DNA from: Bythopirellula sp.
Lineage (GTDB): Bacteria > Planctomycetota > Planctomycetia > Pirellulales > Lacipirellulaceae
Assembly: GCA_028285205.1 (NCBI GenBank)
Contig: JANQQA010000294.1
Coordinates: 2,021-66,020 of the forward strand
DNA: 64,000 nt
Direction: 5' to 3'
Below the pieces are notes generated by a model. That model was not told where the DNA came from, did not search any database, and was given only the letters and a program-made list of their open reading frames with translations. The position numbers were made by a program, and so were the translations under genes. Shown piece by piece: positions 5,613 through 63,422 of this stretch. The stretch's first letter is position 1. Every line of letters begins with the position of its first letter.

Positions 5613-5993
5613 ATGGCTGGAAACCGATTCAGAATACTCAGTAAGGGCCACCGCAGCGAGCGGGGCAAGATGAACAAAACCGAAACGCGATATTCTGAAC
5701 TGCTCAAAGCGCAAAAGCTGGCGGGGGAGATCGCTGATTACTGGTTTGAACCCCTTTCGCTGCGGCTGTCTCGTCCAGCGAAAGGCCAGCCAGCAAGGTA
5801 CTCGCCGGACTTCCTGATATTGATGCCGGACGGGACCACGATCTTTGATGACGTGAAGGGGACTGGTATCGACAACGAAGCGTCAATTGTTCGAATCAAG
5901 GTCGCGGCAGAACTCTATCCGCTGTGGGTATTCCGAATTGCGAAGGAGAGGCGAAAGCGAGACGGCGGCGGCTGGGATGTCAAGACGGTGTAA
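5613..5993 (+). CDS. DUF1064-like PD-(D/E)XK nuclease (putative Holliday-junction resolvase)
   Basis: NKTETRYSELLKAQKLAGEI..YSPDFLILMPDG..FDDVKG matches the DUF1064 pattern (D..D/E-x-K). The start could be GTG 5610, ATG 5613 or ATG 5670. Confidence 0.75.
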   Translation: MAGNRFRILSKGHRSERGKMNKTETRYSELLKAQKLAGEIADYWFEPLSLRLSRPAKGQPARYSPDFLILMPDGTTIFDDVKGTGIDNEASIVRIKVAAELYPLWVFRIAKERRKRDGGGWDVKTV

Positions 5994-36611: not shown

Positions 36612-37685
36612 TTACGCAGCGGTTGCGAAGACCGCATTGCGGCGACGGTTCAGGCAAATGAAGTTGTACGAAAGGTCGGTGAAGACCCTCCATTTGTTGT
36701 GTTGGCCCGGAGCCATGATCGGCTTCGACTCTTCGATGTAGTCGCCTTCCAGCACGACCGGGTAGAACGTGCCGTGATCGACCATGTAGACCGCGCCGGT
36801 TGCCGTCCCTGCGCCCGTACTATCGAGGTACGGAACCCAGATGATCGGGTGGCCGCGAAACATCAGTTCCCCCGCGCCCACGTCCTTGACGCCTCCATAC
36901 GGGGCGAGGTCGCGACCGAGGTTTTCGTTCTGCGATTCACCAATGTCTTCGAGCGACGCCACGGTCGCTTCGTCAACGTAGATGCGCAGGTTTTTGCCAG
37001 CGTTCCCCGTGTAGTCGTGAGACTTCACCGGCGACTTCCAGCCGATCTTGCGTTTGCCCGTCCGCATCTTCTTGATGAGGTCCGGCTTATCGACCGTCGT
37101 GTAAGTCACGCTGTAGTTCTTGTAGTTCGCTGCGGTTGTCAGATCGACGCCCGCAACTGTCGTGTGACCGCTCGCCGCACCACCCGTGAATCCGTCCGTC
37201 GCGTTGTACACGATGTAATACGGCAGCCCATAGGGGGTGAGGTTTTCGGTCGAAGAACTCGGCGCAGCCCATGCCTTTTCTTCCAACTCCTGCGCCAAGT
37301 CGATCATCGCACCTGTGCGCCGAGGGAGCAGGACGTTGGTAATCATGGACTTGCCGCGATTCATCAGCGCTTCGCGACGATCAAACGCCCAACTGGTGAT
37401 CGCGTGTCGCCACGGGACTTGCAGTTGAGTCGTCAGATCGGGAATGCCCGCGCTGTCAGTGGCATCGAGGCCGACGTGGGACGCAGCGCCCGATGTCTTG
37501 TACATCAGATTGCGCTGAATTCCGTACCCGTCACCAAACATGACCTTGTCGGCTTTGAGCCACTTGCCCATCACTTCGTAGTCTTGAAGCTCTGCGGCAA
37601 TCTGCTCGAACTTGTTTGGTCCGAGGTCACGCAGCGTCAACGCTACGAGATCGCCGTAATCATCGGCTTGAACAGTAACTGCCAT
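36612..37685 (-). CDS. Major capsid protein
   Basis: 357 aa, positioned between the scaffold-like gene and the decoration-like gene. Confidence 0.85.
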   Translation of the reverse strand: MAVTVQADDYGDLVALTLRDLGPNKFEQIAAELQDYEVMGKWLKADKVMFGDGYGIQRNLMYKTSGAASHVGLDATDSAGIPDLTTQLQVPWRHAITSWAFDRREALMNRGKSMITNVLLPRRTGAMIDLAQELEEKAWAAPSSSTENLTPYGLPYYIVYNATDGFTGGAASGHTTVAGVDLTTAANYKNYSVTYTTVDKPDLIKKMRTGKRKIGWKSPVKSHDYTGNAGKNLRIYVDEATVASLEDIGESQNENLGRDLAPYGGVKDVGAGELMFRGHPIIWVPYLDSTGAGTATGAVYMVDHGTFYPVVLEGDYIEESKPIMAPGQHNKWRVFTDLSYNFICLNRRRNAVFATAA

Positions 37686-40034: not shown

Positions 40035-41789
40035 CTAAGCTGCCCCGCCTTGACCCATCAACTGTGCCATCATCTGCTGTTGCTGGTTATCTCCTTGGCG
40101 CGGGGTGATGTCGCGGCGGTTGTAGTTTCTGGTTGTCACGGGAGCCTGTCGTGGACGCTCGACTGCGGGGGAATCCATCGGGTTCACCTGAATCTGGTCG
40201 TTGAGAAGTTCGTCCAATTCAGGCAGGTCGCCATATTGCCCCACTCTGCGTAAGTATGCTCGCACATTTGCACCAATGCCCTGCTCGTGGAGCATCGGAA
40301 TAATTGGCAAAATGTCTTCCGCCCAAATCTGACGGAGCATCGCCAACTGTTGACCGGACGTGCGGTCGGTCATCGATTCCGGCTTGATGTCGAGGTTGTA
40401 CGAATTGTACTCGCCACGGCGAATGTCCACCTCACCGCCTTGCCCGTCCATCTGGTACGGCCAGCCGGTCTCGACTTCAATCGGTTGTCCCGCCCCGTTG
40501 TCCGTCCCCTCGATTCGTCTGACCACCGGAATCTGCACCAGCGGGTCATTCCACAGCCACCAGCCCGTGTCGGTCAGGACATTCTTGGTGAAGCGAATCA
40601 CCGCACCCTGCATGGAACTCATGCGCTGGCTCGCGCTCCCCGCCAACAGCTTCTCCTGCCCCAACGTATCTGCACCAGTAGATAATCCACCCAGCGTGTC
40701 GAGGTTGCCGCTGAGGTAGCTGAAACGATCCGACGCATGAATCGCGAACGCCAGTGTCGCTTGGTCCGCACCCCCAAACCGGATTTCTTTGATTCCTTCC
40801 GGGCTATTGACGCGAATTACCTGCCCGTCACCAGATCGCGTAATCCGCTGCCCGTCTTCCACCGCATTTCCTGAAACCGCCGTGACAGTTTTCTGCCGAG
40901 CCGCCTGCTCTCCCAGCTTGTTGTACAACTTGTTCGTCAGGTCGTGCATATCCCGCCATGATGCAACGGGGGGCAAAGGCATGAAGTTATTGGGAACCCA
41001 CGCAAAGCCGAGCATATGGTACGGCCCGTTCTCCGGGCCTTCCCAATCGGTCACACGCAACGGCTTGCGGGCATCTTCGGAGCCGAACGTGTAAATCTTC
41101 TGTTCGCGGGGCACCCAGATGTCCCACAGAGTCACACGCTCCCCGTAGGAATCCTCATGCAAGGGTGTCATGCTGCGGGAAATCTCAGCCACTTCCCCCT
41201 TTTTGCCGTTGAACTCGTCGTGCAGTTCTTTGACCGCCTTGCGATCATTTGCACTGTTGCTCTTGACGTCTTCTAAATCGACTTCGTACTTGTTTCCGAA
41301 GAACCGAGCTTGATCCCACCGCGTCGCTCCCGACTCATACACCCAGTCGTCCAGATCGACATTATCCACAAACGGCGTGTTGCCGTCGTGCAGGAACCCG
41401 TCGAACTCCGCACGATCTTCTCCCGTCACCCCCACCTTGACGATACCCGCCCCAAATAGCGCACCAATCACTGCGGCGCGGAGCGTGTCTTCCAGTCGGA
41501 TGCGGAGAATGATTTCGTTCAGCGCGTACTGGAATTCTTCTGCTGCGTCACGAAACCCGATGTGAGAAGTGACCACGCGCACCTGGGGCGCACGGGCTGC
41601 GAGGTGCTGGGTGTAGATATTCACCGCCAACTCAATCAGGTTGACGGGAACATTCTGACGACCGCCCCCGGTCGTGTAATGCGTACCGACGTACTGCTTG
41701 ACAGCCTGTAGCCGGTTCTTGCGGTAGTCTTCCAGCGATGCGTGCGATCGCTTGACCGATTCCCGCAGCTTGTCAAATTGCTTTTCCAT
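40035..41789 (-). CDS. Portal protein
   Basis: 584 aa immediately downstream of the large terminase. Size and order are typical. Confidence 0.85.
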   Translation of the reverse strand: MEKQFDKLRESVKRSHASLEDYRKNRLQAVKQYVGTHYTTGGGRQNVPVNLIELAVNIYTQHLAARAPQVRVVTSHIGFRDAAEEFQYALNEIILRIRLEDTLRAAVIGALFGAGIVKVGVTGEDRAEFDGFLHDGNTPFVDNVDLDDWVYESGATRWDQARFFGNKYEVDLEDVKSNSANDRKAVKELHDEFNGKKGEVAEISRSMTPLHEDSYGERVTLWDIWVPREQKIYTFGSEDARKPLRVTDWEGPENGPYHMLGFAWVPNNFMPLPPVASWRDMHDLTNKLYNKLGEQAARQKTVTAVSGNAVEDGQRITRSGDGQVIRVNSPEGIKEIRFGGADQATLAFAIHASDRFSYLSGNLDTLGGLSTGADTLGQEKLLAGSASQRMSSMQGAVIRFTKNVLTDTGWWLWNDPLVQIPVVRRIEGTDNGAGQPIEVETGWPYQMDGQGGEVDIRRGEYNSYNLDIKPESMTDRTSGQQLAMLRQIWAEDILPIIPMLHEQGIGANVRAYLRRVGQYGDLPELDELLNDQIQVNPMDSPAVERPRQAPVTTRNYNRRDITPRQGDNQQQQMMAQLMGQGGAA

Positions 41790-41863: not shown

Positions 41864-43744
41864 TTACACATAGTCCCGCCAGTACGATGGCTGATCCGCC
41901 ATCTTCCGCAATTGCTCCCTCTGATTCCGCCGCCACTGAAACGAACCCAGCTTCGCCTCTTCCGGCCTCTCCTCCGGCTTCGGGGCCGGAATGTCCTCAA
42001 CGCCAAACCACGCCAGCGCACACGCAATCGCCGAGTCACCGTGCCCCTTGCCCTTTGACCCGTCGTCCGACGTTCCCTGCTCGGCCGCGTGAACCAGAAT
42101 ACCACCCTTGAAGAAGTATTGCCCGCACTCCGTCACGATGCGACCGGACTTGATGACGCACTTGTCCATCGCAATCGCCTGCTCTAGGTTGGACAGCACC
42201 TTTTCGCCCTTGTCTTGATTCTGGTATCCCGGCTTGTTGGTTTTTTTTCTGAAGTCACTGTGGCCCGATTCGCGGTAGTACAGATTCGGATAGCTGGCGC
42301 GCAGCACTTCGCGAATAAACTCCGTCCCACCACCCCCGGCATTCACTTCGGGAACCATGTAGGCGTGATGAAACCACTTCCCCATCGCAACAGCCAGTTT
42401 GGCGAACTCCCACGGCTTGATTTTGTTGCTACTGAACTCAGCCACTTGATGCCCCGTGTTTTTGTCGATCACCACAATCGCCGAGTAGGCCGAACCCGTG
42501 CCGCGTGAAATATCAACCCCCATCGAGTAGTGACCTTCCGGTACAAGCAGCGCGCCTTCACTGTTGACGAGGCTGCACCACAACTCCACGTTCCCGGAAG
42601 CGTGCTTCATAAAGTACGGCTCTAACGTGTCTTCGTCGTATTGAAGTTTTCCCCTGATAACCGGGTCTTCTGTCAGACCTTTCGCCTTTTGCAGAATGTC
42701 GCCGCTGAACAGCCGGGACGTGGCACCACCGAAATCCTTGTCCAGTTCCGCTGCGATGGAAGCGGGGGATGAGTTTGGACGGCGGCACTCGAAGTCGTAA
42801 TACGGCGACCGCATCTTGCCGTCGAGAATGAACTTGTAGGCGTAAGGATGCTTGTACTTGGGGTCCAGTTTTTCCAGTTTGCCATCGTGAGACGTGTAAA
42901 GCCCTGCCGCCTTTTCCGCATCGTCCTTCCAGTCGATGTCGATTAACAACCGGTCTTTCGTGTCGTCCATTACCGCATCGTAGAACGCACCGGACTGGCC
43001 ACGTTTCTTATTCGGGGTGGAGACGTAGACGCGGGAGCGGGTGACGTGTTGCACAGAATCCATCACTTCCACGTCTTTGCCGACCGGGAAGGAATGCAGT
43101 TCGTCCATGAACCACCACAATTTTCTTCCTCCACGGCCCATGTTTCCGCCGGTCGCAAAGCCGGAGATCGTCGAACCGTTCCGCGCATTGACGATTACAT
43201 GCGTCTTCGTGCGGTGATACCAGTCCACCCCTTCCGTCCCCCGCATCCACAACGGCAAACGGTTGATGATGAACTTGATCTTGGAGAACAGCGAGTCGGG
43301 GTTTTCGGGATCGTCTACGGAGTTCTCATCTTTCGACGACATGCCGATGTGCGTCTGGTCGTGGAATCGCCAGTCCCACTCAGCCAGAGCAATGAACATC
43401 CAAGTTGCGCCAGTTTCGCGAGATTTGAGCACGCAGATGTCGCGCTTGCCCAAGTCCTTGACGGCCCGCATGACGACGCGGTCTTGATAATCGCGAGTCA
43501 GAAACGGAATCTCTTTGGCTGTCTCGCCCCACTTCGTATCCTGCTGCCAAGTGGCTGCGTCTCTCGGTTCCAGCAACCAGTGCATGAGGTTGAAGTAGTA
43601 GAGCGGGTCGCGCGAGCAGGCGATCCACACCTCTTGCCGGTACTCTTCGTCGTAAACGCAGCGTTCGAGAACGTGCTTGCGCCATGCGACGTGAGCAGCA
43701 GGGTTCTTTGGGCAGTAGCGTTTGTAGAATTCGTTAGTCGCCAA
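41864..43744 (-). CDS. terL: Terminase large subunit
   Basis: 626 aa with the ATPase region VLKSRETGATWMFIALAE and a C-terminal nuclease-size domain. TTG start. Confidence 0.85.
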   Translation of the reverse strand: MATNEFYKRYCPKNPAAHVAWRKHVLERCVYDEEYRQEVWIACSRDPLYYFNLMHWLLEPRDAATWQQDTKWGETAKEIPFLTRDYQDRVVMRAVKDLGKRDICVLKSRETGATWMFIALAEWDWRFHDQTHIGMSSKDENSVDDPENPDSLFSKIKFIINRLPLWMRGTEGVDWYHRTKTHVIVNARNGSTISGFATGGNMGRGGRKLWWFMDELHSFPVGKDVEVMDSVQHVTRSRVYVSTPNKKRGQSGAFYDAVMDDTKDRLLIDIDWKDDAEKAAGLYTSHDGKLEKLDPKYKHPYAYKFILDGKMRSPYYDFECRRPNSSPASIAAELDKDFGGATSRLFSGDILQKAKGLTEDPVIRGKLQYDEDTLEPYFMKHASGNVELWCSLVNSEGALLVPEGHYSMGVDISRGTGSAYSAIVVIDKNTGHQVAEFSSNKIKPWEFAKLAVAMGKWFHHAYMVPEVNAGGGGTEFIREVLRASYPNLYYRESGHSDFRKKTNKPGYQNQDKGEKVLSNLEQAIAMDKCVIKSGRIVTECGQYFFKGGILVHAAEQGTSDDGSKGKGHGDSAIACALAWFGVEDIPAPKPEERPEEAKLGSFQWRRNQREQLRKMADQPSYWRDYV

Positions 43745-49398: not shown

Positions 49399-49680
49399 GT
49401 GAGTATGAGTGAGGGCAAGTATCGCATGGATGTCGTCTATCCGCTTGGCCAATTCGACATCACCGCAATGGATGTAATCATCGAAGACGCAGTTGGAAAA
49501 GAAAGCGAATCCAGTGGCGGAGGCATTGGTGGTCGCGACCTGCAATTCTACTTCGACAGTGAGAATGACCGCACAGTCGCGGCACTCGCTGTTGCGTCAA
49601 TTCAAGACCACCGAATCGACGTTGTTCGACGAACCGACTTGGACCCGCCGCGCGCCCCAGCACTGGAAAATGAAGCGTGA
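49399..49680 (+). CDS. Hypothetical protein
   Basis: 93-aa ORF (GTG 49399 or ATG 49405). Confidence 0.7.
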   Translation: MSMSEGKYRMDVVYPLGQFDITAMDVIIEDAVGKESESSGGGIGGRDLQFYFDSENDRTVAALAVASIQDHRIDVVRRTDLDPPRAPALENEA

Positions 49681-49775
49681 TTTCTGCGCGAAACTGACCT
49701 TGCACCCACCTTTGTAAAAACTACAATCAGCGGTGCACGGTTCAGCCGACAATACATTCGAGCGACTTTCGCTCA

Positions 49776-49820
49776 CCCCGCCTGCTGGACTGTGCAAACC
49801 CACCTTGGCGGGGTTTCTTA
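49776..49820 (+). terminator. Probable terminator of the 45.5-49.7 kb operon
   Basis: CCCCGCC (49776-49782) pairs with GGCGGGG (49807-49813), followed by TTTCTTA. The loop is long (24 nt). Confidence 0.5.
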
Positions 49821-51047
49821 TTGCTACGGAGAACTGATTGAGAGAAAGCTACCACGCAAGGCGTGCGACCCCATGACACCCAGCGACTACATGCCGGTCG
49901 CCCACATCCAGTTCGTTATCGCAAGGCATGTAACGAAGCCCAGTAAGAAGCACAGCCCCCCGCCGGGGAAATTTGAGGCGGGCCGGTAAGAAACGGTAGC
50001 GTCGTGATGATGCAACCTGAACCCTAAACGGGAACCGGATAACAAAATCGACGGCTGAACAACAGCGGACCCTGGGAAACGTGGTAGCGATGGCCAAACG
50101 CGCCGCGCCCGTGGCAATACCTACCCAGTCTCAATCATCAAGCACCCGTCGTGAGGATGCCGTCAGCCACAAAGCTGTCCTGACAGTTGCAGCGACGTTA
50201 AACAACTGCGGGGAAGGCACCTTTGGCGCTCTGGCCTCGTTCAGCACCACAACCCCGCACAAGCGACGTCAGAGCCTCTGAAAACACGTCAGCATTACCC
50301 AGCTTCACAGCAACAAGCGACAAGACACAGCGAACACCACCCATCTACCAAGCAGTCAGGCGGAAATTACCCATTGTGACAGGCGAAATTGAGGCGATTG
50401 GAGGGAGGTTAACTAGGGGTGTCACATCGCGACCGGGGTGGGGTGACGGTCAAGAATCGGGAGTCGCGGAAGCCTGGGGGTCCCACCCGTCGAAATTGCT
50501 CGCAAAACAGCGGTGTGTCGCAACGTGTTGGCATCAATAGCTTTGCGGTGGACGCAAACGTGCGGTTGCATCCATATGACAGCATGAGGCTGTGCGACTG
50601 GGTGCTGATGGCTGCGTGCAGCAGGGCCGGGCGTCGCCTGGCGGATCGGGCATGTGAGTGCACGCGCGGTGAGTTATCCCCCTGCCATCTGTCCACATTT
50701 CGAACAATGTGTTCGATATTGCAACACTTTCCGCTGTGCTGCTCGCTTTGTTGACTCGATTCTGTCTGGTGTATGTGCGCGAAACTACACACGTAGCGCG
50801 CGCGTAGCGCACAGTCCTCATAGGAACTCGCCCTGCTTCCCGCCTGTGTGGCGTTTGGGTGCCGAATACCGCAATCCGGGCGAATCCCGCTGTTCTTGCC
50901 AGATTGGCAGCCCTGAGAGGCCGCAGGAGCGACGATTGGACGCTGGCGTGAGGTGAAGCACGTATGAATTCGGGCCGATTGCCTGCTGTAATGCAAATCG
51001 AGACTACTCGCCTGCTGCCCTGTTGAGAGTCTGCTTGATCCACGCTG

Positions 51048-51278
51048 TCAGGTCTTTGGCGGCACGTCGGCTACCTGCTCCGGCTTGCGACCAGGGCGTC
51101 TCGTAGAGTCTTTGGACCAATCCTGAACAGCGCACAGCGAAACAATCCGACTGCCGTCGCCTAGCTCCACTGTCTCCACCTCTCCGCGAGCTATCGCCAT
51201 TGAGAGAGTCGAGCGATTGACACCTGCTGATCGGGCAGCGCCTGAGATTGATGCGTATTGTGCAGGATCGATTTTCAT
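51048..51278 (-). CDS. HTH DNA-binding protein (repressor/Cro-like)
   Basis: 76 aa with ASISGAARSAGVNRSTLSMAIARGEV as the HTH. A near-consensus promoter sits so close that the mRNA is essentially leaderless. Confidence 0.8.
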   Translation of the reverse strand: MKIDPAQYASISGAARSAGVNRSTLSMAIARGEVETVELGDGSRIVSLCAVQDWSKDSTRRPGRKPEQVADVPPKT

Positions 51279-51284
51279 GCTGAT

Positions 51285-51367
51285 ATTGTAGCGTGGAAAT
51301 TATTTTTGTCAAATCGTCAATTTTTATGTGATTGCCCCTTGCAATTGTTGACGACTTGTCAATAATG
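51285..51367. promoter_or_regulatory. Divergent promoter/operator region
   Basis: Minus strand: TTGACA (51312-51307), 16 nt, TACAAT (51290-51285), then 6 nt to the ATG. Plus strand: TTGCAA (51339-51344), 17 nt, ATAATG (51362-51367). Inverted 15-mers TTGTCAAATCGTCAA (51306-51320) and TTGACGACTTGTCAA (51348-51362). Confidence 0.55.
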
Positions 51368-51429
51368 GTGTGCATGCAAAACAAAACCCGCCACGAACTG
51401 AATCGCAGCGGGCAATGTATTCGAGTGTC

Positions 51430-51523
51430 GGAGGGTTGGCAGAGTGGCCGAATGCAGGTGACTGATAATCACCCAAAGCGTCTCATCAGGGCGTTTTCGC
51501 GGGTTCGAATCCCGCACCCTCCG
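51430..51523 (+). tRNA. Class II tRNA with a Ser-type body and anticodon GAU (Ile)
   Basis: Acceptor GGAGGGT/ACCCTCC and discriminator G73. D stem GCA/TGC with loop GAGTGGCCGAA. Anticodon stem GGTGA/TCACC with loop CTGATAA. A 25-nt variable region. T arm GCGGG-TTCGAAT-CCCGC. CCA is not encoded. Confidence 0.85.
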
Positions 51524-51588
51524 CACTCGTTTAGTTTATCGGCCAGCGTGACTGATTTCAATACCCTTTTGACTGGGAGGGTTGGACA

Positions 51589-51762
51589 ATGTATTTCGCT
51601 GGCAAACATTGGGGGCAATTTCGCACATTCAAAGCAGAATACGACGACGGACGTCCTGCGATTGCGTGCTGGCCTATCGATAACAACCGCCCTTGGTTTG
51701 TGATTTCCGTGGAACGATGGCTCACAGAGCGTCGAGAGGGAAATATCTACCCATCCGTATAA
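51589..51762 (+). CDS. Hypothetical 57-aa protein
   Basis: GGGAGG lies 9 nt upstream. MYFAGKHWGQFRTFKAEYDDGRPAIACWPIDNNRPWFVISVERW..*. Confidence 0.55.
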   Translation: MYFAGKHWGQFRTFKAEYDDGRPAIACWPIDNNRPWFVISVERWLTERREGNIYPSV

Positions 51763-56599: not shown

Positions 56600-56617
56600 T
56601 GCTTGAGGGGGCAGGTG

Positions 56618-57784
56618 ATGGCGGATTCTAACAAACCAAAGAAGCCATATCCAGAGTTCCCCTTGTTCCCCCACGCGACCAAGCGGTGGGCCAAGAAGAT
56701 ACGGGGCAAGCTGCACTATTTCGGTCCATGGCGTGATCCTGATGGTGCCTTGGAAAAATACCTGCAACAGAAGGATGCACTCCACGCTGGCCGCACGCCG
56801 CGATCCGTCGATGGTCTGTCACTGTTGGACCTTTGCAATAATTTCCTCACAGCCAAGATGTCGCTGCTGGACTCTGGCGAACTCTCGGCGCAAATGTTTG
56901 CCCGCTACTTCCGCGCTTGCGAAAGAGTGCAGGCCCGATTTGGTAAGAACAGGTTTGTGGACGATATCACCATCGTTGAGTTTAATGAGCTTCGCTCCAT
57001 CTTGACAAAGGACAAGAGTCCCGTCACTGTGCGCAATGATGTGCGGGACATTCGGTCGATTTTTAAGTATGCCCACGATGCCGGGCTTATTGATGAGCCG
57101 GTGAGGATGGGGCCGAATTTCAAGCAGCCATCCAAGTCTGTACTTCGCAAGGAGCGGACACGCCATGGGCCTCGCATGTTTGAACCCTCGGAACTGCTCG
57201 CCATCCTCGAAGCGGCCAATCCTGCGATGAAAGCCATGGTTTTACTGGGTGTCAATTGTGGGTATGGAAACACGGACGTTGCGAGCCTGCCGCAATCAGC
57301 GATCGTAGACGGCTGGGTGGACTTCCCCCGCCCCAAGACGGGAGTTGGTCGGCGATGTCCATTGTGGGACGAAACATCCAAAGCCATCAGCGAAGCAATA
57401 GCGATCCGCCCCAAGCCAAAGAATAAGGCCGACGAGAACTTGTGTTTTGTGACCATTCAAGGGAACCGCTGGACGCGAGTGTCGCCAGGCAAAAAAGACC
57501 CAACGAAATTCAGTAAGGTCGATTCGGTGGGGCAGCGGTTTGGGAAACTGCTGAAATCTCTCGACATCAATGGAAGGCATCGGCTCGGATTCTACTCGCT
57601 ACGCCGCTGCTTCGAGACGATTGCGGGAGAATCGACCGACCAAGTCGCCGTCGATGCCATCATGGGCCACGCAGACCAATCCATGGCAGCCGTGTATCGC
57701 GAAAAGATCAGCGACCAGCGATTTCAGAACGTCGTCAACGTCGTTCATCGCTGGCTTTTTCAATCTGTGCACGCACAGATTTGA
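56618..57784 (+). CDS. int: Tyrosine integrase
   Basis: C-terminal HRLGFYSLRRCFET..IMGHADQSMAAVY (H-x-x-R .. H .. Y). ATG 56618 within ORF 56603..57784. Confidence 0.9.
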   Translation: MADSNKPKKPYPEFPLFPHATKRWAKKIRGKLHYFGPWRDPDGALEKYLQQKDALHAGRTPRSVDGLSLLDLCNNFLTAKMSLLDSGELSAQMFARYFRACERVQARFGKNRFVDDITIVEFNELRSILTKDKSPVTVRNDVRDIRSIFKYAHDAGLIDEPVRMGPNFKQPSKSVLRKERTRHGPRMFEPSELLAILEAANPAMKAMVLLGVNCGYGNTDVASLPQSAIVDGWVDFPRPKTGVGRRCPLWDETSKAISEAIAIRPKPKNKADENLCFVTIQGNRWTRVSPGKKDPTKFSKVDSVGQRFGKLLKSLDINGRHRLGFYSLRRCFETIAGESTDQVAVDAIMGHADQSMAAVYREKISDQRFQNVVNVVHRWLFQSVHAQI

Positions 57785-58738: not shown

Positions 58739-58824
58739 GGTCTCCGAAGCACTTTCGGCAGTTGCGCTGCGTAGCTACATCAAACGGACAAGCAGAGGAC
58801 TGGGTTCGATTCCCAGCGGAGACC
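58739..58824 (+). ncRNA. tRNA-like element C (8-bp acceptor + canonical T arm, non-canonical core)
   Basis: GGTCTCCG (58739-58746) pairs with CGGAGACC (58817-58824). T arm CTGGG-TTCGATT-CCCAG abuts the 3' strand. No D or anticodon arm can be drawn in the 53-nt core. Confidence 0.5.
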
Positions 58825-59059
58825 CTTTCAATGAAAATGTGGCGTGTGAGTATCGGCAACTCACTGTAACGCGGGGACGCAAACGCCGTTGGGAGCGGGA
58901 AACGGATGCTACTGAGAAGTTGTAACCCAGTGGAGTGGCAAGACCACCGAAGATTGTTTGAGTCAATCTCTCGTGCAACACCCTAACCAAGTACGACACC
59001 CCGACAAAGGAAAGTTGATAACTAAACCTGCCTTGCGAGTAACAAGGAACTCGATGGTA

Positions 59060-62528: not shown

Positions 62529-63422
62529 ATGACTGATCTGTTTGAACAGCAGAAAGACGATGTCGTGATTGATGCTGAGATCGATCATCCCGAAGTCGGG
62601 ACCACTGAGATTGCGACTCGCGAAACGTCGTACCCAACTCTGTCGGCCAATGCGCTGATCCAGCGGGCGATTGATAGCGGGCTTCAAGTCGATTCGCTGA
62701 AAGAACTGCTGGCGATGCGGCGGGAACTGAAAGCGGAAGAGGCTCGCGAACAGTTCTTCGATGCTCTTGCGAAGTTTCAGGACGAGTGCCCGCCCATTGA
62801 GAAACAGAAGAAAGCGGACAAATACCATTACGCTCCGTTCGACCACATTGTCTCGGTGATTAAACCGCACCTGAAGGAGAACGGATTCAGTTACACATTC
62901 GACGCCGAGTACCTTGAGGTTGGGAACCAGCAGGTACAGCGGGTGACGTGCCACCTGCACCATCGGGCGGGACACACTGAATCGTCGGTGTTCTCGGCAC
63001 CAGGGGCGGGCACGCGAGCGATGAACGTGACGCAAATTGCGGCATCGGCATTGACCTACGGAAAGAGGTACGCACTGTGCAGCGTCTTGGGATTAACGGT
63101 CGGCAACGACACGGACGGTTACGTTCCGCCTGAACAGAACGGAACGCCAGATCGTGACGCCAACGCTTCGACGGCACCGGCCCGCGATGAGCCGGAACCG
63201 GAAGTGTCCGCAATCGAAGCAAACAACCTGTATCACGACTGGAAGACTTACCGCGAACAGTCGGGGTTGGACCAAAGCGATGAAGCATGGTTTGAGTGGT
63301 TTATAGAAGCAACTGGGATGCCACCAAATATCGCGAAGAACAGAAATCTATGGTCCGCGAGCGACTACCGCAAAGCATGCTCCGCCTTTGACAACATGGC
63401 CCCAGGTTTGAGGCAGCAATGA
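62529..63422 (+). CDS. ERF-family single-strand annealing protein
   Basis: KADKYHYAPFDHIVSVIKPHLKENGFSYTF..TYGKRYALCSVLGL matches the ERF pattern. Confidence 0.8.
   Translation: MTDLFEQQKDDVVIDAEIDHPEVGTTEIATRETSYPTLSANALIQRAIDSGLQVDSLKELLAMRRELKAEEAREQFFDALAKFQDECPPIEKQKKADKYHYAPFDHIVSVIKPHLKENGFSYTFDAEYLEVGNQQVQRVTCHLHHRAGHTESSVFSAPGAGTRAMNVTQIAASALTYGKRYALCSVLGLTVGNDTDGYVPPEQNGTPDRDANASTAPARDEPEPEVSAIEANNLYHDWKTYREQSGLDQSDEAWFEWFIEATGMPPNIAKNRNLWSASDYRKACSAFDNMAPGLRQQ

Follow-up and report, generated by a model that had tools for sequence, protein, structure and literature searches.

A tRNA gene in a 64,000-nucleotide stretch of Bythopirellula sp. DNA (contig JANQQA010000294.1, positions 2,021 to 66,020; hereafter the window), which looks like a near-complete temperate phage genome, joins a class II, serine-type body to the isoleucine anticodon GAU. 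Our analysis shows that this gene is a real, structurally intact tRNA, probably of tRNA-Ser(GCU) descent, whose isoleucine anticodon is separated from GCU by a C35 to A exchange. Provided that the RNA is made, we regard it as an even call that it would be charged with serine and decode AUC and AUU as serine, in competition with the host tRNA-Ile(GAU). By structure and predicted charging the molecule would be a tRNA-Ser, whereas by decoding it would not.

Structure and amino-acid identity of the tRNA

The gene and its most distinctive element are located as follows.

51430-51523, plus strand: class II tRNA gene of 94 nt with a Ser-type body and the anticodon GAU (ARAGORN, Rfam, fold and position parse)
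51474-51498, plus strand: variable region of 25 nt (fold and position parse)

ARAGORN reported a 95-nt tRNA at 51430-51524 with the anticodon gat and called it tRNA-Ile(gat). The Rfam family RF00005 matched positions 51430-51523 end to end with 56 bits (gathering score 29, E=2e-9), and RNAfold returned a four-arm structure of -40.8 kcal/mol (z=-3.2). The acceptor stem GGAGGGT/ACCCTCC is paired at 7 of 7 positions. The D stem GCA/TGC has 3 bp and an 11-nt loop, GAGTGGCCGAA (RNA form GAGUGGCCGAA), and the anticodon stem GGTGA/TCACC encloses the loop CTGATAA, with the anticodon at 51464-51466 and A35 at 51465. The variable region forms a 9-bp stem, AAAGCGUCU/GGGCGUUUU, which includes G-U pairs, closes over a 5-nt loop and is bordered on each side by a single unpaired C (C44-like and C48), and the T arm reads GCGGG-TTCGAAT-CCCGC. 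All 29 stem pairs are intact (acceptor 7, D 3, anticodon 5, variable 9, T 5), as are the conserved tertiary positions U8, A14, G18-G19, U33 and the T-loop TTCGAAT; the position parse reads U8, G9 and A26. Position 51523 is the discriminator G73, and the CCA end is not encoded in the gene. The original prediction, made from the letters of the window, had described a 94-nt cloverleaf with these arms and loops and with G73, and each of its details matches the position parse, ARAGORN, Rfam and the fold.

The anticodon differs from GCU at a single base, A standing in place of C35 to give GAU. An independent Logan assembly of run SRR20820731 (contig L159) also has A35 and agrees with the window at 100% identity across 10,138 bp; the window and this contig are probably derived from the same reads.

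Serine identity in bacteria depends primarily on the long variable arm, supported by G73, G1-C72, G2-C71 and G30-C40, and does not rely on the anticodon, while G73 acts as an antideterminant for LeuRS and TyrRS (PMC9976931). Isoleucine identity, as defined by the E. coli set, involves the anticodon loop together with t6A37 (N6-threonylcarbamoyladenosine at position 37), A73, C4-G69, U12-A23, C29-G41 and G16 in the D-loop (PMC9976931). The window tRNA carries all of the reviewed serine determinants, i.e., the long variable arm, G73, G1-C72, G2-C71 and G30-C40. It further has A3-U70, C11-G24 and the Levitt pair G15-C48, and its D-loop is of the serine type (G13-A14-G15-U16-G18-G19-C-C-G-A21-A22). 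Of the isoleucine determinants, only the anticodon loop CUGAUAA is present; the remaining determinant sites are occupied by G73, G4-C69, A12-U23, U29-A41 and U16. A class I tRNA-Ile has a variable loop of 4-5 nt and a D stem of 4 bp, whereas the window tRNA has a 25-nt arm and a D stem of 3 bp. Serine anticodons are NGA or GCU/ACU, and the anticodon found here is GAU.

As reference sets, we used phage tRNAs that share the D-loop and long-arm architecture, comprising 92 unique sequences with GCU, drawn from at least 120 viral matches, and 43 unique sequences with ACU (135 in all). Among the matches listed, G73, G1-C72, G2-C71, A3-U70 and C11-G24 each occur in 83-98% of the GCU and ACU tRNAs; within the GCU matches listed, G73 is present in 87/92, G2-C71 in 90/92 and A3-U70 in 81/92. 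One bona fide phage tRNA-Ser(GCU) (L058) has an acceptor stem and a discriminator identical to those of the window tRNA. Its D-arm is also the same except for the 12-23 pair, which is A12-U23 in the window and U12-A23 in L058, and which had been left free in the search pattern that found L058. In a sister contig of L058 (L059, ~5815-5900), a near-identical tRNA-Ser(GCU) has lost its anticodon through a 3-nt deletion; it is not called by ARAGORN and is a pseudogene.

When the anticodon was masked, the nearest neighbours of the window tRNA among 1,940 unique tRNAs were tRNA-Ser, at 72-75% identity. We also scored it with covariance models, the serine model being built here from 42 phage tRNAs and distinct from the isotype model of tRNAscan-SE. 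The window tRNA reached 78.1 bits with the Ser model, 47.1 bits with the Leu model and 18.1 bits with the class I Ile(GAU) model, to which it aligned in a distorted manner. With the Ser model, genuine phage tRNA-Ser score 76-95 bits and other tRNAs at most 53 bits. The earlier proposal of a Ser-type body with an Ile anticodon is borne out by this score, which lies in the cognate range, and by the lack of isoleucine determinants outside the anticodon loop. The expected combination of an isoleucine anticodon with serine as the best isotype was thus obtained with covariance models built here. The gene scores neither as an ordinary tRNA-Ile nor as a pseudogene, and our searches found no C35 homologue of it, these being the outcomes that the original prediction had named as speaking against its claim.

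Class II GAU tRNAs and other anticodons on the same architecture

To survey other genomes, we used a structural pattern consisting of the Ser-type D-loop, the CTGATAA loop, a long variable region and TTCGAA, which is conditioned on GAU. The three collections yielded the following matches.

Viral contigs: 4 matches that are tRNAs
Species-representative genomes: 21 of 27 loci are tRNAs
Metagenome records: 46 of 55 loci are tRNAs

Together, these collections contain 58 unique class II GAU sequences. A perfect acceptor stem combined with G73 is found in 15 of them, namely the window tRNA, those of two phage contigs (L039 and L044) and those of a range of loci from metagenome-assembled genomes (MAGs) and metagenomes. 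In one further sequence (L084), the perfect acceptor stem is combined with A73. L039 and L044 (tRNA between terminase and portal) represent intact GAU tRNAs with the serine signature in unrelated phage contigs. The other 42 of 58 (72%) are acceptor-defective: 17 have an altered 5' end (class B), typically starting with CC or AC versus GG, 21 have an altered 3' end (class C), typically ending in ...UAU-U versus ...UCC-G, and four have other acceptor defects. The damage does not extend beyond the two or three terminal acceptor pairs, and the internal stems match those of functional tRNAs in cleanness. Among the matches listed, the acceptor is perfect in 91/92 cognate GCU tRNAs. Many of the defective copies may be recombination-junction remnants of tRNA-Ser genes. 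The flanks of the class II GAU tRNAs are heterogeneous: some loci lie between housekeeping genes and mobile-element genes, a few have integrases or resolvases, and we found no conserved gene neighbourhood. Stem diversity among the matches was considered as a sign that GAU is conserved and was rejected, because the scan was conditioned on GAU.

Class B comprises the loci L079, L091, L107, L111, L114, L115, L121, L122, L135, L137, L140-L142, L147, L150, L151, L154 and L155, which come mostly from peat and soil and from Bryobacterales MAGs. They have a Ser-type body, GAU and the 3' end ...UCUCUCC-G, with CC, AC or CA in place of the 5' GG, so that the pairs 1-72 and 2-71 are broken. The flanks are T-rich upstream and read CAAAGG or CCAAGG downstream. 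Class B could represent att-type remnants or a conserved tRNA-like RNA.

An identical 92-nt class C gene is present in 11 of 5,426 complete E. coli genomes, where PGAP labels it 'tRNA-Ile'. The copy that we analysed has the following position.

L166 9001-9092 (NZ_CP032237.1 2729400-2729491), antisense to its neighbours: E. coli prophage copy

This copy is part of a lambdoid prophage, with replication gene P on one side and an antiterminator gene on the other, and is near-identical to viral contig L043. It combines a Ser-type class II body and GAU with the acceptor end G1-U72, G2xA71, U73. An intrinsic terminator (9094-9119 in L166) is located directly behind it. The consensus scan detected no sigma-70 consensus promoter for the prophage copy, and the assumption that it has its own promoter was dropped, as the scan supports the terminator only.

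Two intact copies, L078 1592-1684 (Salinisphaeraceae MAG) and L093 2766-2858 (Pseudomonadota MAG), are followed directly by tRNA-Arg(ACG), and in L093 tRNA-His follows as well. We take this tRNA-Arg(ACG)-linked arrangement to be the chromosomal serV-argV-type layout of gammaproteobacteria. L078 and L093 are probably variants or errors of ordinary host tRNA-Ser(GCU) genes.

As a control, we searched the viral contigs for the same architecture with other anticodons.

GCU (Ser) and GCA (Cys): at least 120 each
ACU (Ser): 90
GUU (Asn): 15
GAU (Ile): 4
UCU (Arg): 1, with a bad acceptor
CCU (Arg), GGU (Thr), GCC (Gly) and GCG (Arg): 0 each

The anticodon distribution is far from uniform, and among the matches listed GAU is the only non-Ser anticodon on bodies with the full serine signature; two intact viral GAU examples and the window tRNA are too few for a strong statistical claim. 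The GCA tRNAs (L171-L290, e.g., L199) occur in at least 120 viral contigs, mostly of large phages with tRNA arrays, and are 81-93 nt long. Among the matches listed, 72/77 unique GCA copies have the cysteine discriminator U73, and their 2-71 and 3-70 pairs are variable. The 15 class II tRNAs with GUU (L060, e.g., 1158-1245, L062-L073, L075 and L076) lie in arrays of phage contigs of 65-376 kb, several of which also contain cta/tca suppressor-type tRNAs. All GUU copies have G73 and perfect acceptors, and their 2-71 pair is mostly U-G or U-A, not the Ser-type G-C. The members of the GCA and GUU families appear to be authentic class II tRNA-Cys and tRNA-Asn belonging to large phages, not mischarging tRNAs; in the searchable literature, we found no description of such long-arm Cys or Asn tRNAs of phages. 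The 90 ACU phage tRNA-Ser (L291-L383) have an unusual A34 and the full serine signature including G30-C40. ARAGORN also reported tRNAs of 84-97 nt with other isotypes in the large-phage arrays (L171-L503), among them Thr tgt (85 nt), Met cat (89 nt), Trp (84 nt), Lys (88-91 nt), Glu (90 nt), Phe aaa (96 nt) and Arg tct (97 nt). These long tRNAs could be long-arm scaffolds, intron-containing tRNAs or miscalls.

Predicted early promoter region, phage layout and relatives

The region upstream of the tRNA contains two divergent promoter-like sites and is followed by predicted early genes. All ORFs (open reading frames) and signals that are relevant here are listed below.

51285-51312, minus strand: predicted leftward promoter TTGACA-16-TACAAT (consensus scan, 11/12)
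51339-51344 (-35) and 51361-51366 (-10), plus strand: rightward sigma-70-like promoter TTGCAA-16-AATAAT (consensus scan, 9/12)
51306-51320 and 51348-51362: inverted 15-mers TTGTCAAATCGTCAA and TTGACGACTTGTCAA, candidate operators (repeat search and direct reading)
51386-51413: G+C-rich leader hairpin between promoter and tRNA (terminator scan; 11 pairs, including 7 G-C pairs)
51048-51278, minus strand: ORF of 76 amino acids with a helix-turn-helix (HTH)-like N-terminus, divergent from the tRNA (translation)
51589-51762, plus strand: first ORF downstream of the tRNA, 57 amino acids
52093-52458, plus strand: DUF7222 protein, one of the further rightward early ORFs

The predicted rightward promoter (51339-51367, including the ATAATG register) is located about 60 nt upstream of the tRNA. 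It had been written before as TTGCAA-17-ATAATG, a register equivalent to the TTGCAA-16-AATAAT of our consensus scan. On the other strand, the promoter-like site stops 7 nt ahead of the ATG of the HTH ORF, a leaderless geometry; the near-consensus leftward promoter proposed for this ORF was recovered by the scan with 11/12 positions. The 15-mers are part of an imperfect inverted repeat with 30-nt arms that are 73% complementary, and they overlap the leftward -35 element as well as the spacer and -10 element of the rightward promoter. The inverted repeats that the original prediction had placed over the promoter region are real and overlap both promoters. The hairpin at 51386-51413 is followed by a T-run on the minus strand and scores as an intrinsic terminator on that strand, where it would stop leftward antisense transcripts of the tRNA short of the promoter/operator region. 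The terminator scan found no plus-strand terminator between the tRNA and the downstream ORFs, which makes co-transcription of the tRNA with the early genes plausible. The assignment of promoters, operators and early timing relies on consensus matches, from which we may reasonably infer that the tRNA is a repressor-controlled immediate-early product.

The 76-amino-acid HTH ORF has a weak Pfam HTH_1 match (E=0.003) that lies under the cut-off. We found no homologues of this ORF, its exact sequence is not on record, and it is not among the gene calls of the Logan contig L159. In the Logan annotation, about 1.9 kb around the tRNA (49680-51589; 6824-8733 in L159) lack called genes. Minus-strand ORFs of 76, 126, 169 and 195 amino acids exist in 49680-51589, and their coding status is uncertain.

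The phage has a size of roughly 64-70 kb, and its main genes are arranged as follows.

36612-37685, minus strand: major head protein
40035-41789, minus strand: portal
41864-43744, minus strand: large terminase
Minus strand: tail protein of 1913 amino acids
45855-46514: resolvase
56603-57784, plus strand: tyrosine integrase (Pfam PF00589, 31.7 bits; PHROG integrase, E=9e-26)
62529-63422: ERF recombinase

We consider the phage temperate because of the tyrosine integrase at 56603-57784. Two Logan contigs from run SRR20820731 match the window with 100% identity. Any isolated phage is distant, the best tblastn identity of the terminase being below 31%, and homologues of the DUF7222 protein and of the terminase were found in a Planctomycetes MAG and in an Acidiferrobacteraceae MAG, respectively. 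In the 64-kb window, we found no synthetase or tRNA-modification gene and no recognisable defence, nuclease or counter-defence gene.

To compare the tRNA locus among related phages, we retrieved DUF7222 homologues with 49-68% identity (L160-L165) and terminase homologues with 43-61% identity (L167-L170, L504-L514); none of the terminase relatives came from the viral contigs. The closest relative, with a terminase 61% identical, is syntenic through resolvase, terminase and portal and has its own divergent promoter region, and it lacks the tRNA. The tRNA is also missing from the contigs of two more distant terminase relatives and from four early regions that contain a DUF7222 homologue. Searches of the viral contigs with DNA patterns derived from the tRNA, both exact and degenerate, revealed no orthologue, and a pattern of its 5' half matched only the cognate tRNA-Ser(GCU) of L058 and its pseudogene in L059. 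Likewise, no close match emerged when the tRNA was compared by blastn with the phage, plasmid and E. coli collections. Judged by this sequence comparison, the tRNA is an insertion specific to this lineage and sits in the leader of the putative rightward early operon. In a 73.5-kb relative of the window phage (L512), ARAGORN called a 'tRNA-Val(gac)' at 1513-1587, adjoining an HTH_3 regulator gene. We rejected this candidate, which has no Rfam support and in which only the T arm and a 3' acceptor-like fragment are convincing.

Predicted serine insertion and its alternatives

According to our model, the operator-flanked promoter would drive transcription of the tRNA along with that of the early genes. 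Host processing enzymes would excise the tRNA, and the host CCA-adding enzyme would finish its 3' end. Host SerRS, which reads the variable arm, G1-C72/G2-C71 and G73 and ignores the anticodon, would then charge it with serine. On the ribosome, the resulting Ser-tRNA(GAU) would compete with the host tRNA-Ile(GAU) at AUC and AUU and insert serine. The outcome would be a proteome-wide, low-level Ile-to-Ser missense in the infected or induced cell, not a codon reassignment. Transcription, processing, serylation and decoding are deduced from the sequence features of the locus, the biology of SerRS and the yeast precedent described below.

The code used by the phage was read from alignments of 76 terminase and 60 portal homologues. 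In these alignments, 27 ATT/ATC codons of the terminase and 29 of the portal gene align with columns in which I, L, V, M and F predominate. The homologues have isoleucine at these positions in 41% (terminase) and 32% (portal) of cases, leucine in 17% and 19% and valine in 12% and 16%, and serine in only 1.0% and 1.7%. TCN and AGY codons of both genes lie in serine-rich columns. Over 96 ORFs of the window, ATT and ATC together amount to 39.7 per 1000 codons, so AUY is not avoided. We therefore rejected a reassignment of AUY to serine in the phage, given that 56 ATY codons align with I/L/V-type columns in which serine accounts for 1-2%. Since the phage uses the standard code, serine at AUY would mean mistranslation of host and phage proteins alike. 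Hence, the 'programmed' character that the original prediction had ascribed to this mistranslation is not supported: the phage genes use AUY as isoleucine, and serine insertion would damage the phage's own proteins. Programmed mistranslation is possible, though unproven.

Several observations weigh against a functional, serine-inserting tRNA. A chargeable Ser-tRNA(GAU) should harm the phage too, about 4% of its codons being AUY. The tRNA is a singleton that is absent from every sampled relative of the phage, and thus there is no evidence that A35 is conserved. The disabled acceptors of 42/58 class II GAU tRNAs suggest that chargeable GAU versions are selected against. Among the matches listed, CCA is encoded in 85/92 cognate phage tRNA-Ser(GCU) and not in the window tRNA, and the 25-nt variable region exceeds those of all 135 cognate tRNA-Ser (16-22 nt). 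In addition, if L078 and L093 are variants of ordinary tRNA-Ser genes, C35A arises as background. Within the serylation reading, it is possible that the gene is a recent, tolerated C35A variant, arisen or acquired, and somewhat unlikely that it has a selected function. The singleton state, the self-harm to the phage and the rarity of chargeable versions elsewhere make the tolerated accident somewhat likelier, whereas the flawless structure, the early operator-flanked promoter and the intact copies in unrelated phages keep a selected function alive.

Natural tRNAs with a mismatch between charging identity and anticodon are, to our knowledge, rare. The Candida tRNA-Ser(CAG), the allo-tRNAs and tRNA-ProX each changed views on the rigidity of the genetic code. 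Allo-tRNAs resemble the window tRNA in that they are natural Ser-type long-arm bodies with non-Ser anticodons; some of them insert serine in E. coli, and those with the Ile anticodon UAU form the most abundant class (PMC5389517). Many UAU allo-tRNAs carry stem-destabilising changes and are thought to be unused in translation (PMC5389517), which parallels the many acceptor-defective GAU copies. However, allo-tRNAs are defined by an 8/4 or 9/3 acceptor/T geometry (12-bp branch), whereas the window tRNA has the canonical 7/5 geometry. They also have UAU instead of GAU as their Ile anticodon and occur mainly in soil bacteria (e.g., Acidobacteria) near toxin-antitoxin loci, in contrast to the predicted phage early operon of the window tRNA. 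The design of a tRNA-Ser body with GAU is shared with the yeast tS*-I(GAU), in which the tRNA-Ser scaffold is serylated and inserts serine at AUC/AUU, as detected by mass spectrometry; this tRNA is lethal when it accumulates and is rescued by overexpression of tRNA-Ile (PMC6125640). The yeast tRNA is synthetic, eukaryotic and conditional through a destabilised acceptor stem, whereas the window tRNA is natural and phage-borne. Further natural tRNAs with an identity-anticodon mismatch are found in the tRNA-ProX/ProRSx system, which carries out deliberate missense translation (PMC10404621, PMC11415595). There, proline is inserted with the help of a dedicated synthetase paralogue, whereas the phage encodes no synthetase and the SerRS route needs none. 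Phage counter-defence tRNAs are likewise single and early-placed, and GAU and GCU loops are known nuclease targets (PMC13043305). The known counter-defence tRNAs keep their cognate identity and anticodon, whereas the window tRNA replaces neither tRNA-Ile nor tRNA-Ser(GCU) faithfully. Canonical 7/5 tRNA-Ser(GCU) of phages share with the window tRNA the acceptor, discriminator, D-arm architecture, Levitt pair, variable arm and T arm, and differ from it in the anticodon position 35, the length of the variable region and the encoded CCA.

In the literature outside subscription journals, we found no paper on a canonical class II GAU tRNA in a phage or prophage. As a phage-borne tRNA-Ser of canonical 7/5 geometry that has an Ile anticodon and is placed directly behind a predicted operator-controlled early promoter, the window tRNA would be the first candidate for missense translation driven by a virus. 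Should the gene turn out to be an accident, it would still mark the limit to which a mobile genome tolerates a toxic tRNA. The missense reading is directly testable, and a related acceptor-variant copy is available in culturable E. coli strains.

A more far-reaching view, which we consider unlikely, is that phages deliberately deploy a Ser-charged tRNA reading Ile codons early in infection, either as a weapon against host translation and stress responses or as a shield against anticodon nucleases that target GAU/GCU. The window tRNA would then represent the intact form of a wider set of non-canonical class II tRNAs, which includes GAU, Cys-type GCA with U73 and GUU.

Improbable, but with some precedent, is a non-translational role as decoy, competitive inhibitor or sponge, in which the GAU loop and the class II body would provide the surface that binds an anticodon-loop nuclease or some other defence protein with affinity for tRNA. 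The HEPN anticodon nuclease HepS, which is encoded by a prophage, has tRNA-Thr(GGU) as its strongest target and cleaves tRNA-Ile(GAU) and tRNA-Ser(GCU) as secondary targets, preferring anticodons that end in U with G before it (PMC13043305); a Septu system is reported to cleave tRNA-Tyr in its variable loop. A decoy would also account for the 42/58 class II GAU tRNAs that combine perfect internal stems with acceptor ends expected to block charging, one of them in an E. coli lambdoid prophage with a terminator right behind it, and predicted expression at the start of an early operon would suit an anti-defence product. However, the acceptor end of the window copy is perfect and chargeable, unlike that of these candidate decoys, which are equally well explained as recombination-junction remnants. 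Moreover, a nuclease or defence gene was not found in the window, and there is no evidence for such a nuclease in the host.

We assign the same low probability to an inert or decaying gene, i.e., a tRNA-Ser(GCU) with C35A that is not meaningfully expressed or matured, has no phenotype and will be lost. The singleton state without orthologues, a rightward promoter with just 9/12 matches, the missing CCA and the C35A background in ordinary tRNA-Ser genes (L078, L093) all fit this explanation, as does the anticodon-deleted tRNA-Ser pseudogene of a neighbouring phage lineage (L059). In contrast, with 29/29 stem pairs and the tertiary positions intact, the decay would have to be extremely recent, and a promoter-like site lies directly upstream with no plus-strand terminator between it and the tRNA.

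It is quite improbable that the tRNA accepts isoleucine or has a dual identity, so that partial charging by IleRS would allow it to supplement or replace the host tRNA-Ile(GAU), perhaps as a nuclease-resistant version. This possibility arises from CUGAUAA being the canonical tRNA-Ile loop and from the anticodon positions being strong Ile determinants. Class II scaffolds of large phages do carry other identities (GCA with U73; GUU without the Ser-type 2-71 pair), and one class II GAU tRNA has A73 (L084). The window tRNA, however, has G73 and not A73, lacks C4-G69, U12-A23, C29-G41 and G16, and reaches only 18 bits with the class I Ile model. Its acceptor end is still Ser-like, unlike those of the remodelled class II Cys and Asn families.

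A sequencing or assembly artefact, or a minority allele, with a plain tRNA-Ser(GCU) as the true gene, is very improbable. The anticodon is a single base from GCU and the same change occurs in two MAG loci of canonical tRNA-Ser/tRNA-Arg context, yet the NCBI-derived window and the Logan contig agree completely over 10 kb including A35, albeit probably on the basis of the same reads.

Least plausible of all is tRNA-dependent lysogeny, in which a host tRNA gene is lost upon integration and its function in the lysogen is supplied by the phage tRNA: the phage is temperate and the mechanism is established in mycobacteriophages (PMC10865867), but such a system requires an attP/attB core within a host tRNA gene that is not restored as well as a phage tRNA of matching isotype, the mismatch of identity and anticodon makes it implausible that a GAU tRNA charged with serine could stand in for tRNA-Ser(GCU) or tRNA-Ile, the gene sits behind an operator-flanked early promoter and not in a lysogenically expressed position, and the tRNA-like element near the integrase gene has no Ser or Ile features. 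This element (58740-58825) is the second ARAGORN call in the window, a 'tRNA-Cys(aca)' with an irregular 53-nt core inside the acceptor GUCUCCG/CGGAGAC and a T arm, and it scores under all Rfam thresholds (mascRNA 26 bits, tRNA-Sec 19 bits). Located about 1 kb downstream of the integrase gene, it may be attP-related.

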